Shown one piece after another: positions 1-8,403 of a DNA stretch of 64,000 bases (position 1 is its first letter; each line of letters opens with the position of its first letter). The notes under the pieces were generated by a model. That model saw nothing but the letters and a program-made list of their open reading frames with translations. It was not told the origin of the DNA and ran no database searches. A program made the translations under genes and the position numbers. The DNA comes from Octopus sinensis. Taxonomy: Eukaryota. The DNA lies in NCBI RefSeq assembly GCF_006345805.1, contig NC_043008.1, forward strand, positions 57,536,001 to 57,600,000, read 5' to 3'.

Positions 1-1108
1 GTAGTTGATCCAGGCCATACTGAGGCCTTTCTTCTTTCTGCGGCTGTCTTCAGTTATGGCTTTATTGATCATTATTTGATCTTTACAGCCATATGAGCCC
101 TTGCAGAATCCCTTCTGCTCTTCTGGAAACGGGTTGTTTTATTCCAGATGCTTGCTCAATCTTTGCGATATTATTGCAGTAAAGGCTTTGTACATTGTAG
201 GGAGACAGGTTATAGGTCTGTAGTTTTGTGGTTTTGTCATTTCATTGGATTTGGGAATTAAGATAGTTTTCCCTTTCATGAGCCATTCAGGCATTGTCTC
301 TGGCTCTGCTAGTATGTTGTTAAAGTTTTCAACCAGCTTTTTGTGTATTCCTGTCAGATATTTTAACCAGAAGTTGGAGATCTTGTCGTGCCAAGTTACT
401 TAGTCTTTGCAATGCCTGGGTGACCTCTTCAGTTGTTATAGGGGTCCAGAGTTGCCCAGATGCTAAGTTTGTTATTTTAATACTCCTTTTTTTTGGCTGT
501 TCGTTCGCCGACCATATTTCTCTCCAGAATTCTTCCAATTCTTCTGCCGTTGGTGCTGCAGTGACTTCTATTTTATTTTTGCCCAGTTCTTGGTAGAACT
601 TTTTGGGGTTGGAGTTGAACTTTTTGTTTTGTTCAAAGAAGCATTGGCGTTTCCCGTACCGGCGGATCCTTTGAGCTTTGGCAAGGATATCTTGCTTCAG
701 CTTTTCTTTTATCTCCGGCAAATCTTTTTCTGTGATGTTATATTTGCGGAGTATTTTTGTTGCTCAGTAGCGTTGATTGTTTGCTGATTTCATTAAGAAT
801 CGACAGATCTTTTCTCATTTTTTGTATTTTGTTTTGGATGTTATTTATCCACAGGGTTTGTTTGGGTGGTGGTACTCCTGTTTGGATGGGTTTGAGTGAG
901 TATCCAGCTTCTTTTGAGGCTGCAGTGGCTGCTGCGTATATTAAGTCATTTAGCTCAGTGATATCGCTTTTTGTTTCAGTGGCTATTAGTTCCGTGACGG
1001 CTAGGTTTATGCTGTTTATAATTGGTGTTGTTGTTTCGTCTATTTTGATTCATTGGTCCATTCTGAGACCTGTGGTTTTCAGTTCTTTAATTATTTTCAT
1101 TTTTATAG
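1..1108 (-). mobile_element. Decayed R4/Dong-like non-LTR retrotransposon, RT N-terminal part; runs off the window start
   Basis: The minus strand reads ...NYRPITCLPTMYKAFTAIISQR...EQKGFCKGSYGCKDQIMINKAI...GLSMAWINY (RT motifs) and ILAKAQRIRRY...QNKKFNSNPKKFYQEL...EEFWREIWS, typical of RLE-type LINEs. Stops and frameshifts are present. Confidence 0.75.
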
Positions 1109-1110
1109 TA

Positions 1111-2248
1111 CAGTCAACTTTCGCTACTATGCCACCCTGCGGGACTGAGCCAAAGTGGCATAGTACCGAGGGTCTGTTATCTAAACACTACATAACCAAA
1201 AATTTACTGAACATACGAATAAAAATTCATAGGGTGGGAAGTAAGGCCAATAAGAAGTTCAATGCAATGGTAAAAAGAAGACATCCAAGTTTATTAAGTT
1301 CAGATTGCTTTTAGTTAATCCCGAAGCTCTCAAAAATTGTCAGCTGACGCATCTTCTTTCGGCGGATTTCATTCATTTCGTTGTCTAGCCTATCACACGC
1401 CTGCATGACGCTGGGTTTTCCGCTGCTCTGCTGCTGCATAAACTTTCGGATAGTGCTCCATGCTCTCTGGGCATCTGCAAACGAAACGTATTCCTCTTCC
1501 GCAATTACCTCATTGTCTTCACTTTCCACCGGCTCTTCGTTATGCATTACTTCTTTTGCTATTTCTTCTAGAGTATAGTTGGTATGAGTTATAGATGAGT
1601 ATACTTGGTATGAGATTATAGATGAGTATCTATTTCTTCTAGAGTGAAAGATCCTCCAGTTACGAGAAAATCAAACAGCTCAATTGTTTCGTTCTCATGT
1701 GTCTTTTCCTCGAGAGGTAAAGCTTTCCAGATCTCGAGCAGCTCAGCATCCTCTGGCTCTATTTGTATTTCCTCTTCAATAAACTTGGCTTTCGCGAAGC
1801 AGTTCTTAATCGTCAATTCACTGACCTGCTCCCATGCACGCCGAGCAATGTGCAGAGTGTCGAGCAATGTAAATTTAAACTCGTTTCCTTCATCCATGGC
1901 TTCGAGACGGTGGGACAGCAAGAGCTTTTTGTAATGGTGCTTAAGATTTTGTATGATTCCTTGATCCATTGGTTGGGAATTTGCTGTTGTGTTGGGCGGA
2001 AAGAAGAGCATTTGGATGTTGTCCAAGTGGACGTCAGAAGGGTGACCAGAGAAGTTATCGAGACAGAGCAACACTTTGCGGTTTTGCTGCCCGAGTTGTC
2101 CGTCCCACGTTTGTAACATTTCTTCAAAAATTTCTGCTGTCATCCACGCCTTCAAATTAGCCTTGTACTTCACAGGGATCTTTGTTCTTAAACGCACTAG
2201 GTTGCTTGGAATTTCCGATCACCAGAAGAGGTAGCTTCTCACTGCCGC
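1111..2248 (-). mobile_element. Truncated Tigger/pogo DNA transposon (DDE_1 transposase remnant) interrupting the R4-like LINE
   Basis: TA|CAGTCAACTTTCGC end at 1109-1124. ORF 1616-2197 contains KAWMT, LLCLDNFSGH, FFPPNTT..QPMDQGII..LK..Y and CFAKA. The C-terminal RQLTIFESF is in ORF 1311-1547. Confidence 0.88.
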
Positions 2249-2680
2249 TTAAGTTTGCTCTGACCAAAAGAGTGATTCTTTGCTTGCTTTTCTTTCCCCT
2301 GTTCTATTTCTGATATTTTTTTTTGCGTTGAGAATATATCTTCGTATGTTAGCTAGTTTATTAGGGTTCATTGCTGTATCCAAGTCTTTATATGTATGTG
2401 TTATTGTGTTTTCGTTCTTTGGGTAGAACACTGCTGTAAAGTAAGCATGTAGGATTGAAATATATTCCTCACATGTCCATTTATGCCTTTTTGGTTTTAT
2501 TTGTGGGACATGAGGAACAACATCTGGGCCTTTATTTTGACGGTCATCATTTTCGTAGGGTACCGGTTTGTTCATTTCTGTTGTTAAATTGTTTTGCACG
2601 TGTAGTTTTTCATACTTTTTGCATAACAAGTTTAAAGTACGCACTTCCCAATTGTTATACTTGGGTCGAATAATACCGGT
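2249..2680 (-). mobile_element. 5' portion of the same R4/Dong-like LINE
   Basis: RHKWTCEEYISILHAYF...NPNKLANIRRYIL resembles the N-terminal region of R4-type ORFs, in the same orientation as 1-1108. Confidence 0.55.
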
Positions 2681-2892: not shown

Positions 2893-2919
2893 GGTACTAG
2901 TAGCGTAGACTGGACCTGG

Positions 2920-3035
2920 TTTGCGCAGACGCGTGTCCGCGCTAGCCAGACGTAGGTAGTTGATCCTACGAGCCGACTGGCGCATGCGCGATATATACTT
3001 GTATCGCACGTGCGCGATACATATTTGTTTGCGGT
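2920..3035. repeat. GC-rich palindromes and hairpins, a candidate viral terminal hairpin remnant
   Basis: CGTAGG-tagttgat-CCTACG, GCGCATGCGC, and TGTATCGC-acgtgc-GCGATACA with the alternative pairing GCGATATA-tact-TGTATCGC. CpG-rich next to very AT-rich DNA. Confidence 0.55.
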
Positions 3036-3315
3036 CAACATAAAATACTATTTTACAGATTAAAATAAATGAATTACTATTTTACAGAATAAAATTAATG
3101 AATTAATTATATAAATTAAATAATTCTTGAAAATTAATTAATATTAATATCTTTTGAACAAAGTAAATAATTTTTTAAACTTAAATAATAATTTTTTTTA
3201 CATAAACGTAACACAAACTTATATAATTTTTACGCGAACGTATATAATTTCTGAAACTTAATTATTTTTTTTTTACAGACATATATAATTTGTTAAACTT
3301 AATGAATTAATTTCT

Positions 3316-4200
3316 TCACACAAATATATAAATAGATTTGAAAACCTTCATTGAAACTTCTGTACTTGCATATTTGCTTGGATCGAATTCCCAGACCATA
3401 TTCTCAAATTTTTGTTTGAATGGCATTGTTAACGTACGTAGCTTAACACATTCGAGCACTTTCTTCATGATGTTATCATACTGTGCGTGACTTATAGCGC
3501 GCATAAAATTCTCGTTGTTAGGCCTATTTAACCAGTAAGATTTCATATCTTGTTCTGATTTAAATGATTTGTTGGTGTAGATATAAGTCAAATAATTAAA
3601 CAAATAAAGTGTTGTTCCTGACTTAGATTTGAAGCATGGTTCGTCGTTATCAATCTTAGTTTTCTCTTTTTCGCTTTCTTTATGTACGTTTGTTGGTTTA
3701 GGTATGTACTCTTTCGTACACCAATGACTGAATTCGCAGTTCAATTCATTCGAACCATGAATCAGTAGTAGTCGTGGTGGTTGACAGAAGTAATTCGCCA
3801 TTGCACTCGGAAATTTTACATTTTGTGCATCCGGTATATATCTTTTTAAATTCGTTGCCTTCTTGTATAGTATTCTTATATATTTCAAAACTTGGTTTTC
3901 TCCTGGTCTTATTTCATCGTTCCATATGATATGGAAATGATTATAAGTATTCCATTCCTTGTTACTGCAACCTGCTGCTTCTGCTTTGTGAAATATTACT
4001 GTGGCCTTATGTATCTTAATAAAATTCAATATCTTCTCATTACAATTAGTTTGTACTCCGTTTTTGAATTCTCCTGTTTCTATATTATGGTCGTTAACAC
4101 ATATTTCATCTTGTAGTATTGGTTCGCTATTGTACACCCACGAGAAATCATCTTCATTAATCCATGGGAATATTAGCATATACATCTTCCTTCCTCTCAT
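3316..4200 (-). CDS. Parvovirus NS1/Rep-like HUH endonuclease without an SF3 helicase (294 aa from ATG 4200; 312 aa if spliced to the leader exon)
   Basis: HUH motif NHFHIIW, catalytic-Tyr-like ANYFCQPPR, and a pre-helicase-like segment KYASTEVSMKVF before the stop. No Walker A motif. The ORF is intact. Confidence 0.75.
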   Translation of the reverse strand: MRGRKMYMLIFPWINEDDFSWVYNSEPILQDEICVNDHNIETGEFKNGVQTNCNEKILNFIKIHKATVIFHKAEAAGCSNKEWNTYNHFHIIWNDEIRPGENQVLKYIRILYKKATNLKRYIPDAQNVKFPSAMANYFCQPPRLLLIHGSNELNCEFSHWCTKEYIPKPTNVHKESEKEKTKIDNDEPCFKSKSGTTLYLFNYLTYIYTNKSFKSEQDMKSYWLNRPNNENFMRAISHAQYDNIMKKVLECVKLRTLTMPFKQKFENMVWEFDPSKYASTEVSMKVFKSIYIFV

Positions 4201-4248
4201 CTGTAATGACAAAATTCGTATAGTAATTATTCATTAACGGTGAGCCAC

Positions 4249-5811
4249 TTATCCTGACCCGACTGTCGTTGTAGTATAATTATGAATACCCATCGGCCAT
4301 TTACATAGATGTGTCTTAGAAGAATTTTGTATGACGCCAGCAGTACTATTCCATACTTGGAATCCTGCAGTCTGTGGACTACCAGATATATATTCGAAGT
4401 CTATCTCTGAATTATATGTTATCGTTACCATGAAACTTATTTTCGATGGGTTATCCCCAGAATCTAGTATCGGTATCGAATCTAATGTTGCTATTGGTGG
4501 AGGATTAGATGGGTTAATAGGCATTTGCGTTAAATGTGTTCTACCTATATTCTCTTTGTCTGCCACTTTGTTAACTCCTAACATTTTACTCCATTTCCCA
4601 TTTTTTGTTGGCGCCCATAAATCATAACTACCATACGTATATGTATTAACGTCTGCTGGTAGCCCATCTTTTGATTTAATTGTAGGTGGTTCGTATGTAG
4701 TATCATATGCATAATAATTCATACCATTGAACCAACTAGGAGTTCTATTAATCCATTGATATCCAGCTGTCTCACCACTATATAAGAATTGTAAATCGCC
4801 CGTATTCAAAACACATAACAATTGTTGTGCATTCATTGTCTGTGATGTAGTTGTAGGTTTAGTGAATCCATTATATTCCCACCAATCCTTTCTGCACTTT
4901 CTTGTTGTCTCTACATGACTTAATAATCCCTCTGTTCTTGTAATAGGACAATTATGTTCAAAATTGTTATTAACATTCCTAGTAGTATATGTTGCTGTTG
5001 GAAACAAAGCATACTTATTATCGACGTAATGTATCATATATGGTCTTGTATTAAATGTTGTACTTGTTGTTGTTGTTCCTTGTACTGTACCTAATTCATC
5101 TGATAACGGTACTATGTTAGATATCTTATAACCACATGATTTCACTCTGAAGTTATTACATGGTGACATATATGTTTCTAACTCTGCATTTGTCATGCTA
5201 GCTTTCAAATTACCATATGGTATATATACACATCTATGTTTTATTGTTAACTTTAGATATGCATCTTCCGCACTAGTAGTAATAAATGTAACTTCGTCTT
5301 GTGGTGTATCGAAACAGTTTATATAATGTATAAACGTTCTTGAGAATTTTTTACTTACAATAGGATTTTGATCTCCTATTCCTGGTGGTTGATCACCAGT
5401 TGCTAATGCTGCCGAACCTCCTGGAGCAGGTCCTACGTGTGGGTCTCCCATATCTATGTCTTGACTTCCTATCCCACTATCTTGTGTTCCTCCTGCTTCT
5501 ACTAAATCTTTATCCGATATATACTCCGCTCCCTTTTCAGCTTGATCTTGTTCGGTTTTCCTTTTTTTATTATATGGTGGTATTATCCAGTTCTTAGTTT
5601 TTATAATATTACTAACGACATACGATGTCAACCCTCCAACTCTATCAGAACACTCGATTAATTGTTTATCTGCTTCTAGTTTGCTAATTTCATTAGCACC
5701 ATAAGCTATATCGTGTTCTCTGCAACAATTATCCAAATCATTAACTGGTTCCCTCTCTAGATCTTTAGTATAAGGTCCACAATAATTATAACCAGGTATA
5801 TGTAAAGGCAT
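4249..5811 (-). CDS. Parvovirus-like capsid protein VP1 with an N-terminal phospholipase A2 (520 aa)
   Basis: PGYNYCGP (Ca-binding loop), DNCCREHDIAY (HDxxY), KKRK NLS and a Gly-rich linker. Jelly-roll segments MTNAELETYM..NFRVKSCGYKISNI, YVDNKYALFP, FLYSGE and NPPPI parallel AAV-type FSPRDWQRL..FRPKRLNFKLFNI, FTDSEYQLPY, MLRTGN and HPPPQ. Confidence 0.92.
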   Translation of the reverse strand: MPLHIPGYNYCGPYTKDLEREPVNDLDNCCREHDIAYGANEISKLEADKQLIECSDRVGGLTSYVVSNIIKTKNWIIPPYNKKRKTEQDQAEKGAEYISDKDLVEAGGTQDSGIGSQDIDMGDPHVGPAPGGSAALATGDQPPGIGDQNPIVSKKFSRTFIHYINCFDTPQDEVTFITTSAEDAYLKLTIKHRCVYIPYGNLKASMTNAELETYMSPCNNFRVKSCGYKISNIVPLSDELGTVQGTTTTSTTFNTRPYMIHYVDNKYALFPTATYTTRNVNNNFEHNCPITRTEGLLSHVETTRKCRKDWWEYNGFTKPTTTSQTMNAQQLLCVLNTGDLQFLYSGETAGYQWINRTPSWFNGMNYYAYDTTYEPPTIKSKDGLPADVNTYTYGSYDLWAPTKNGKWSKMLGVNKVADKENIGRTHLTQMPINPSNPPPIATLDSIPILDSGDNPSKISFMVTITYNSEIDFEYISGSPQTAGFQVWNSTAGVIQNSSKTHLCKWPMGIHNYTTTTVGSG

Positions 5812-5821
5812 GTCTACTCAC

Positions 5822-5875
5822 TTTTAACTTGCTGAGCATATCTGCATCACGTAGCTTCAAATCTTCGTAATTCAT
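5822..5875 (-). CDS. Putative Rep leader exon MNYEDLKLRDADMLSKLK
   Basis: ATG at 5875, then 18 codons, then AAAA|GTGAGT (donor GT at 5821-5820). It is phase 0 and in frame with the ttttgtcattacAG|ATG acceptor at 4201. Confidence 0.55.
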
Positions 5876-5924
5876 CTTTCTTTCTTAGTTGAGGGTTAGA
5901 CGTCATTCTCTCTGGGCTTCCAGT

Positions 5925-6075
5925 AAATAATGACAGTTATTTCTGGCGCCCAGGACTATTTATATCTTTCTTTTCCCGCGTATCAGTATCATATTACATC
6001 ACGTGATCAGCACGTCTGAGCACGTTTTGTTCTAGAATACCACGTCATCAAATATATATCTCTTCTCTGATTGGT
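5925..6075 (-). promoter_or_regulatory. Putative viral Pol II promoter
   Basis: On the minus strand: CCAAT (~6074-6070), ATF/CRE-like TGACGTGG (6047-6040), E-box CACGTG (6000-6005), TATAAATA (5964-5957) and Inr-like TCATT at 5933-5929. Confidence 0.6.
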
Positions 6076-6098
6076 CAATATATGTTAGTTCAAATAGT

Positions 6099-8095
6099 TC
6101 AAATATTCAGCTGGGTGTCTGGAACTTCTAGGTTTTATTTCAAAGCCCTTACCAGAAATGGTATCAACTGATATACGTAGCACATAGTCAGCGACAATGA
6201 TGAAGAGAAACGGGGCGAGTGTGTCTCCCTGCAGTAGTCTGGCTTTGATTGAGAAAGATGATGTTTCTCTATCAGGGTTGAAGACGTATCTGTGTAGAGG
6301 ACCTTGATAGCAGAGATGATTTTGTCTGGAATCCCATAGAGCTTAAGGATTTCAAACTTCTTGTACCTATCTACAGAGTCGAACGCTTTAGAAAAGTCTA
6401 CAAACACCATTGCGAGATCGCGATTTTGATTCTTCAATGAGTCTGCGTAGGCATAGTATTTAGCTCAACATTGAGCGCCCATGTCTGAATCCATTTTGGT
6501 TCTTTCAGAGCAAAGGTTCAACAAAAGGGACGAGACAGTTTAGAATCAGCTTGTTGTACAATTTTGCAGCAATTGACATTAGAGATATACCCCTGTAGTT
6601 GGTGATGAGGGATAAATTGCCTTTTTGGGGTATTGGGATGATTTGAGATTGGTGCCAAATCTTTGGAGCTATAAAAGTGGAAAGTGTGTGATTGCAAAGA
6701 TTGAGCGAAAGTACGTGAAATCTATCATCCTTCTAAATTATAGCTGGGATGTTGTCAGGACCAAATGCTTTCGAGGCTTTCAGTTGTTTAGTGGCTGCTG
6801 TTAGTTCAAATATGGTAAAAGGGGAGGTGTTGATGTCCAGCGTATCTGATATAGGCACACTTGGAAGAGTGGGGTTATCAGGGATTTTGGCATTCTTTCC
6901 AAGAAGGTTTTTAAAATGAGTTGACCAATTTTCTAAATGCTTCTTAGCTGATCCCCCTATTGATTCTAATTGATGACCCAGAATATTTGCCTGATAGGTC
7001 TTTGATGGATTTCCAGGCAAGATGGTGTTTTTTACTAATATGCTCTTTGGATAGTTTGCTAGTTTTGCCGTTGATAAAGTCAACCTCAGCGTTCAAGTAA
7101 GCATCATCAAGATTCTTCTTGGCAGTTATGAGTTGGATCTTCAGTGTCTAGGATGGAGAACGGTGGTAAGCTAGTGATATATACTTTAGATGGTTTCTGG
7201 CTTCAATGACATTTGGAGAATTAGGTTTGCTCTGGCCCCTACTCTTCTTTTTGGGAAGAGTAGCCAGTGCAACTTCCTATGTTGATTTGATGAGGCTACT
7301 GTAAACTTCTTCAATGTTATCAGCATCTATTTCAGAAGTAGACAAAGATTGAAATTTGTTATAGACCTCAATAGTAAATTGCTTGGACATATCGGGGTTA
7401 GACGAGAATTCTTTCCAGTCGATCAGTTTCATCGGATGAGGCTTAACTTTTTTGGATAAGTGAAAACTAAGCTTAACAGTAGCTGATACAATTCTGTGGT
7501 CGAAAAATGAGGTAGTCAATTTGTGCCCTGTCACCAGATAGCTACTTGAATGTCCAAAGTTGTCCTTTTGGTTTCATAAAATAATTGTTGGAGGTGTAAA
7601 GATTAAATTCCTCTAAAAAGTCTTTGAGCATTTCCCCATTCCAATTAGTTTTAGAGTTGAAAGTAAACTTGGTCTCATCGGGTCCTAGTTTAGCATTCAG
7701 ATCACCAGCTATAACTAGAAAATTATGGAGAGGTACTTGCTCAATGGTTGAACAAAGAGTTGTATAAAAATCCTCAATCTCATCTGCCACAGACGAATTA
7801 TGTGGGCTATACATGTATACTAATGTTGTTTTCGGATTTCCATCTATCTCGAGCACCATAATTCTGGGCAAGATTGACTCTATACTCAAGAGAGTATCAC
7901 TAGCTTTTGATGAAAGTAGAAAGCCGATACCTCCAACTGTTGAATTAACAGTATTCTTTGATGCTGAAGAGGTTACAAATTGATAAGAACCGACTTGATG
8001 GTATTTGAGGATGTCGTCAGGGTGGTAGAATCGGTTTTCTTGGACAGCTATTATATCAATGCTGTGTGATTCTGCATTTGCACGAAGTTCTTCTA
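6099..8095 (-). mobile_element. Decayed RTE/RTEX-like LINE (APE endonuclease plus RT up to just before the catalytic motif)
   Basis: IIAVQE, YSPHNSS, IAGDLNAKLG, DHRIV, KAFGPDNIP, NYRGISLMSIAAKLYNKL, QNGF, VFVDFSKAFDSV and LQGDTLAPFLFII...RHPAEYL. Many stops. Confidence 0.88.
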
Positions 8096-8403
8096 TATTT
8101 CATTTAATTTGCCACAAGGGCAGCACACAGAGAGAAGCTTGCGGGCTGGACGCAGACATTAATGGGATGAATGATAATAATGCAAGGATGATAAGGATGG
8201 GAGAAGACGAAAAGCACCCGCCGACTTTCACTTCTCTAAAACATTGTTCTTTTTACTTTTTTATAGAAAACACAATGTCGGATACAATAACTTAACTGTT
8301 AGCAAAGTGAAATCACATGTTTTAACTAGTGTACCAACGAGATCTGGGTTCAAATTTACATTTAAATAACAATAGCTTCTCTCGGCCGGGTTAGTAACGA
8401 AAG

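Follow-up and report, generated by a model that had tools for sequence, protein, structure and literature searches.

Known parvovirus layouts

Parvoviruses are described with the NS cassette on the left and the VP cassette on the right, and in the accessible text of the same account Boca-, Erythro- and Amdoparvovirus use a single left promoter, with splicing and the choice of poly(A) site yielding both cassettes from one pre-mRNA (PMC12298888). Megaparvoviruses begin with a PLA2 ORF, yet NS1 precedes VP in the accessible part of their description (PMC13426907). NS1 of the ambisense Planococcus citri densovirus is given as join(160..220, 880..2516), with 275 reads, a leader of about 20 codons being spliced over an upstream gene onto NS1; in the accessible text the gene passed over is NS3, whose own start serves as the leader, and VP lies on the opposite strand (PMC5818608). 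Leader splicing over an upstream gene is therefore already known. Penaeus monodon metallodensovirus (PmMDV; Metalloincertoparvovirus, Metallovirinae) has NS on the left and VP on the right. Its host is a marine invertebrate, and it carries ITRs and, according to the accessible text, no PLA2 (PMC11357303). In Acheta domesticus segmented densovirus, NS and VP reside on separate segments with shared termini, as far as the accessible text describes them (PMC10267136). In 2016 Francois et al. reported sequences related to parvoviruses from Octopus bimaculoides and Lamellibrachia sp., among them helicase fragments of the lineage treated here; the accessible text of that study gives helicase fragments only, without gene order or splicing, and lists KOF81493 / A0A0L8GWZ8 (246 aa), which shares length, organism and accession prefix with the 68% relative P0010 (PMC5013282).

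Here we describe an endogenous element from Octopus sinensis in which the reversal of the parvovirus gene order is real and native and an intron containing the capsid gene is probable, as judged from its sequence and that of its relatives. Like the single-promoter parvoviruses, it would use one left promoter and splicing; in those viruses it is the left-hand NS that splicing removes to give access to VP, whereas here the arrangement is the mirror image. The predicted leader resembles that of Planococcus citri densovirus, with the difference that it would skip the capsid gene. Our literature search, which covered openly accessible papers, found no VP-first monosense parvovirus and no capsid cassette as the gene spliced over by a leader.

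Organization of the element

The window is the whole stretch analysed, 64,000 nt of contig NC_043008.1 (positions 57,536,001 to 57,600,000, forward strand). Its relevant features are given below, with splice-site ranks from an approximate consensus matrix that uses general rather than genome-trained frequencies.

6099..8100, minus strand: decayed LINE (endonuclease, RT), host of the insert; the LINE 3' end resumes at ~2892-2690
3331..6098, minus strand: parvovirus remnant, without either terminal hairpin and without the helicase half of its NS1
5929..6074, minus strand: promoter-like region, with a putative function suggested by motif positions
5822..5875, minus strand: leader of 18 codons, predicted to be the first coding exon of NS1 (ATG 5875; 54 nt, phase 0)
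5824..5847, minus strand: 7-codon upstream ORF, in frame with VP and closing 12 nt short of its ATG; putative role
5816..5821, minus strand: predicted 5' splice donor GTGAGT, phase 0; rank 2 of 129 GT on the element's minus strand
4249..5811, minus strand: VP capsid ORF, 520 aa, with N-terminal PLA2 (PF08398, E=7.3e-13; PmMDV capsid, E=2.4e-10)
4201..4233, minus strand: spacer with predicted 3' splice acceptor, AG 4202-4201; second-ranked among the element's 199 minus-strand AG
3335..4200, minus strand: predicted second exon of NS1, HUH nuclease domain and linker, cut before the helicase; conserved Met at 4185
2893..3330, no strand assigned: AT-rich host repeat present in many copies, containing a hairpin and ending in CTAG; truncates NS1, not viral

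The remnant spans 2768 nt and interrupts the decayed LINE at 6099, where the LINE is broken and contig ends are loose; on the other side the host repeat, which we take to be Helitron-like, begins at ~3330. A hairpin at 2900-3050 was rejected as a candidate for the right end of the virus because it is part of this multicopy repeat. On the minus strand the layout reads promoter, 18-codon leader, GT donor, PLA2-containing VP, AG acceptor and HUH-type NS1. One contig of run X4 joins 3330 to 6099 and skips the whole viral part, representing an empty allele or another locus. A DDE_1 transposase remnant (E=2e-32) lies at 1311-2218 on the minus strand.

Searching the 2.7-Gb genome for copies gave 18 matches for VP and 13 for NS, and three loci besides the window carry both genes (L052, L058 and L057). 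The closest named protein relatives of the element are from Octopus vulgaris and O. bimaculoides, and the lineage is known from integrated, broken copies alone, the free form of Parvoviridae being linear ssDNA of 4-6 kb in a T=1 virion. Viral contigs yielded no relative with VP, P0002 or A5 as queries; 30 distant matches obtained there with A2 were helicase-only (25-33%) and were dropped, as was the one weak match from metagenomes, and the atlas search returned no named relative. The full layout (terminal motif, promoter, leader, VP, spacer of 33-35 nt, NS1, poly(A) signal and inverted motif) was pieced together from several broken copies.

The capsid and NS1 genes

Aligned with its one database relative, VP has the PmMDV capsid (6wh3, E=2.4e-10) as its top match outside PLA2 among solved structures; PF16530 matches weakly (E=0.003, on P0001). 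VP appears to be a jelly-roll capsid protein with the N-terminal PLA2 that is frequent in Parvoviridae. Capsid match, marine invertebrate host and ITRs link the element to PmMDV, and the PLA2 sets it apart from Metalloincertoparvovirus, in which VP has none. The window VP ends at 4251-4249, five codons before the VPs of L052 and L058, whose stop is equivalent to 4236-4234, and runs X2, X4, X5 and X6 deviate from the window within the VP stop codon; the spacer from VP to the acceptor is therefore about 33 nt.

The NS frame is cut at ~3335, ahead of the SF3 helicase, by the host repeat. Pfam gave no convincing match for this frame, which is 63% identical to the full-length P0002, a protein carrying Parvo_NS1 (PF01057, E=1.4e-18). 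A fold model built from 21 sequences (pLDDT 87.5; the single-sequence model was unusable, pLDDT 36) has its first strand at residues 5-12. Its top 10 matches among viral folds are all parvovirus NS proteins (best E=2.4e-8); in the PDB the best is AAV2 Rep68 (E=1.1e-3), with RepB also matching weakly and none at or below 1e-3. Taken together, the identity to P0002, its Parvo_NS1 domain and the fold matches identify the window frame as a parvoviral NS1 nuclease domain, in which the H-x-H motif of the HUH fold is conserved. The SF3 helicase absent from the window is present in L052, L056, L057, L058 and P0002, and among solved structures it matches those of AAV Rep and of NS1 with E about 1e-17. 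A poly(A) signal follows NS in L056, L057 and L058.

Locus L056 (2730-4390, minus strand, G000:C10) contains an NS1 without its 5' end, flanked on both sides by a long direct repeat of host sequence, and a helicase near-identical to it is annotated in Octopus vulgaris (P0007).

Predicted splicing of NS1 over the capsid gene

The sequence-only reading had placed the capsid gene inside the replicase intron, and its coordinates all hold: the leader starts at ATG 5875 and ends at 5822, GTGAGT follows, the VP ATG at 5811 is 10 nt past the donor, and ATG 4200 comes directly after the acceptor AG. The 54-nt exon joins the Rep frame in phase 0 across a predicted intron of 1621 nt, and the features of a U2-type GT-AG intron (consensus donor, pyrimidine tract, YAG and phase agreement) are all present. 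It is proposed that the left promoter transcribes leader, VP, spacer and NS1 as one RNA. Splicing from 5822 to 4200 over VP would give NS1 with the leader as its N-terminus, and VP would come from RNA in which the 1621-nt intron is retained, its start being reached beyond three upstream ATGs through leaky scanning or re-initiation. With the exon side of the donor weak, splicing would remain partial, and both RNAs would end at the poly(A) signal after NS. We consider it likely that NS1 is made in this way, from a single left promoter and by splicing of the 18-codon leader over the whole capsid gene. Capsid and replicase RNAs would then be mutually exclusive products of one transcript, and the late NS starts chosen by gene callers would be explained; that splicing acts as an early/late switch, as had been suggested, is a guess.

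The promoter-like region includes CCAAT at 6074, ACGTG repeats at 6045, 6025 and 6015, CACGTG at 6005, TATAAAT at 5964, GGCGCC at 5950 and an initiator-like TCATT at 5933-5929. Such motifs occur solely upstream of the leader, and no conserved TATA lies near the VP end; for the one promoter assumed in the sequence-only reading this is weak, negative evidence. A 12-mer around the promoter E-box is common to the VP-only unit of L053 (0 of 300 shuffles); aligned over the whole promoter, the two show no significant similarity (100 of 500 shuffles). In runs X2, X5 and X6 no ATG separates the TATA at 5964 from that of the leader; the window has an extra ATG at 5906 that these three runs lack.

GTRAGT occurs only twice in the 2768-nt element, and the exon side of the donor (AAA) is weak. 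The acceptor had been described as pyrimidine-rich and placed after the VP stop; its position stands and its rank is high, but its pyrimidine tract is modest and a stronger AG lies at 4995, inside VP and out of frame. Position 4995, like a further alternative acceptor at 5421, would put a phase-0 leader out of both the VP and the NS frame. The AG-free run before the acceptor is 47 nt in the window and 56 nt in L052, where the counterpart acceptor keeps the same register and is the best of 132 AG; the ATG after the AG is lost there. Comparing the two copies, positions -6 to -1 are identical (6/6), the next 12 nt agree at 2/12, and fourfold sites at 7/26 (27%). The pattern leading from a YAG to the NS start motif is found at two places in the whole genome, the window and L052, and nowhere in a reversed control. 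On this one comparison, it is well supported that the shared pattern is that of a splice acceptor.

Of the sites whose conservation had been named as a check, the acceptor is kept in the one comparable copy (1 of 1), and no comparable copy spans the donor. Donor and leader are seen in the window copy only, and the genome search found no second copy of promoter or leader; other PLA2 matches are one Polinton-like element and one unrelated fragment. One outside sequence bears on the leader: P0052 (KAI0217857.1), predicted in the tubeworm Lamellibrachia satsuma, has 21 residues before the NS motif. Aligned without gaps in the register fixed by exon 2, the leader and P0052 residues 1-16 score 14 with 4/16 identities (shuffle p=0.014; 90 of 60,205 window 16-mers), the best of 40 GT-preceded 16-mers and the best of 13 registers, whereas the unspliced upstream frame scores -10 against the same N-terminus. 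P0052 is known as a gene model alone and was picked by eye among ~5 extended N-termini; the likeness is a modest outside match to the leader. It is plausible that leader and donor are real.

Intron-retaining RNA would present three ATGs (5875, 5847 and 5839) ahead of the VP ATG, the leader frame extends 26 nt beyond the start of VP, and two AATAAA lie within VP (5571 and 5245). The upstream ATGs and internal signals would burden VP expression and are counted against the splicing model, our best explanation; the 7-codon upstream ORF may allow re-initiation at VP.

The 5822/4200 joint was found in 0 of 8 sequencing runs, none of which is on record as RNA and of which the informative ones look like DNA. 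Contigs cross the donor unspliced (X1, X2) and the acceptor unspliced (X2, X4) and run into the LINE flank, and for these reasons the absent joint says nothing on expression; in X7 and X8 the element is uncovered, which is no proof of absence.

An unlikely alternative, though the one that survives best, accepts the gene order as native and has NS1 transcribed from a promoter of its own, located within the 3' part of VP, and started at Met 4185, with leader and donor arising by chance and the AG kept otherwise or for a small non-coding intron. Two-promoter layouts are common in parvoviruses in the accessible text of PMC12298888, and CCAAT at 4497 and TATATAT at 4392 could serve such a promoter; the TATA-like word at 4392 is not kept in L052, however, and no E-box cluster lies near the VP end. 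The context at 4185 is good (A at -3), and a conserved Met occupies the start of the fold, at its first strand, in 15 of the 19 relatives with the start motif, 11 of these being caller-chosen starts. The leader is therefore not needed for the NS fold, which starts at residue 5, and the conserved Met leaves room for a separate NS promoter. Against this stand the other 4 of the 19 relatives (2 clusters), which have Leu instead, and the leader-P0052 match.

Quite improbable is a single unspliced two-gene RNA on which ribosomes re-initiate at NS after the VP stop or read through it. The spacer is short (33-35 nt) and without a poly(A) signal (no AATAAA), and in the window VP is in frame with NS, but two further stops block that frame, the VP and NS frames differ in L052, and the conserved pyrimidine tract and AG would be left unexplained.

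Gene order in related copies

VP precedes NS on the same strand, the reverse of the NS-left, VP-right order of monosense parvoviruses. In L052 the end of VP is followed by a 35-nt spacer and a complete though decayed NS1 (VP 60%, NS 56-58% identity to the window), and in L058 a VP stop and part of the spacer precede a deletion into the helicase. In the rearranged L057 a VP piece is linked to the helicase; its order is ambiguous because an NS piece also lies in front of the VP piece. As the fourfold sites of window and L052 are saturated (7/26), the two derive from separate viruses and are not copies of one event. In run X6, from another species, one contig at 94% identity covers VP end, acceptor and NS and runs 470 nt past the window break, without the LINE flank. 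The distant NS relative P0013 (37% to P0002) has an N-terminus that fits the off-frame C-terminus of VP, at 28/40 positions against P0001 (0/200 shuffles) and 22/40 against the window VP (1/200 shuffles), and this VP-like part lies ~335 nt before the NS motif, compared with 348 and 350 nt here. The claim of a native VP-then-NS order is thus borne out by L052, L058, X6 and P0013, and the order is almost certainly native.

The terminal motif is inverted, occurring before the promoter (L059) or VP (L052) and after NS (L057); in L059 it is followed by CCAATCAG and then TGACGTG, a stretch that counts as evidence for the promoter-like region. Palindromic terminal hairpins, a trait of the Parvoviridae, are not in the window and are represented by a 346-nt palindrome in L053 (z=-33). 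Concatemer junctions carry a palindrome or hairpin of ~330-346 nt, and the VP-NS spacer has none. An integration accident, in which an NS-VP genome was permuted via a circle or concatemer or two segments were fused in the host, is very improbable: concatemers do integrate in this genome (L053), L057 has NS-VP-NS pieces, and a VP-only unit with the same termini exists, but the hairpin of concatemer junctions is missing between VP and NS, the spacing is equal in viruses with saturated fourfold sites and in P0013, and the termini lie outside the VP-NS block. A VP-first lineage shows that rolling-hairpin replication does not dictate cassette order.

Capsid-only units and further loci

The closest capsid relative is the VP-only unit of L053, in which the sequence runs from the TATA to the VP ATG without a leader and which contains no NS. 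It is possibly a segment, a satellite or a defective genome. In its layout alone it resembles the Acheta domesticus segmented densovirus, unlike the window element, which has both cassettes on one molecule. L053 (700-8616, G000:C4049) consists of three whole and one partial head-to-tail 2.3-kb capsid-only units with long palindromes between them, beside which lies a terminus of another type, similar to the one in the VP-NS elements; near-identical capsids are annotated in Octopus vulgaris (CAI9722210-15). Such a unit would be a natural step towards genome segmentation, for which the accessible text gives one cricket virus so far (PMC10267136).

Tentatively, and as a reading we hold to be possible rather than likely, these elements may constitute a new parvovirus lineage of subfamily rank in molluscs and annelids that runs the parvovirus programme in mirror image. 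VP as a whole would be an intron of NS1, intron retention would set the capsid:replicase ratio, and a capsid-only segment or satellite with unchanged termini would arise when leader and NS are lost.

Three further loci were noted. L060 (4346-5551, plus strand, G000:C22) has an intact 402-codon capsid-like frame (hhalign 98.7%) with a glutamine-rich N-terminus and no PLA2 match, possibly a domesticated capsid gene. L059 (4432-5662, minus strand, G000:C14) holds an HUH Rep fragment (4657-4965) inside a transposase remnant, which from their motifs we take to be circovirus-like and ISXO2/Merlin-like, respectively. L115 (1838-6925, minus strand, G000:C5) is a largely intact gene block with a PLA2 gene and protease-like and capsid-like frames, presumably Polinton/adintovirus-like.
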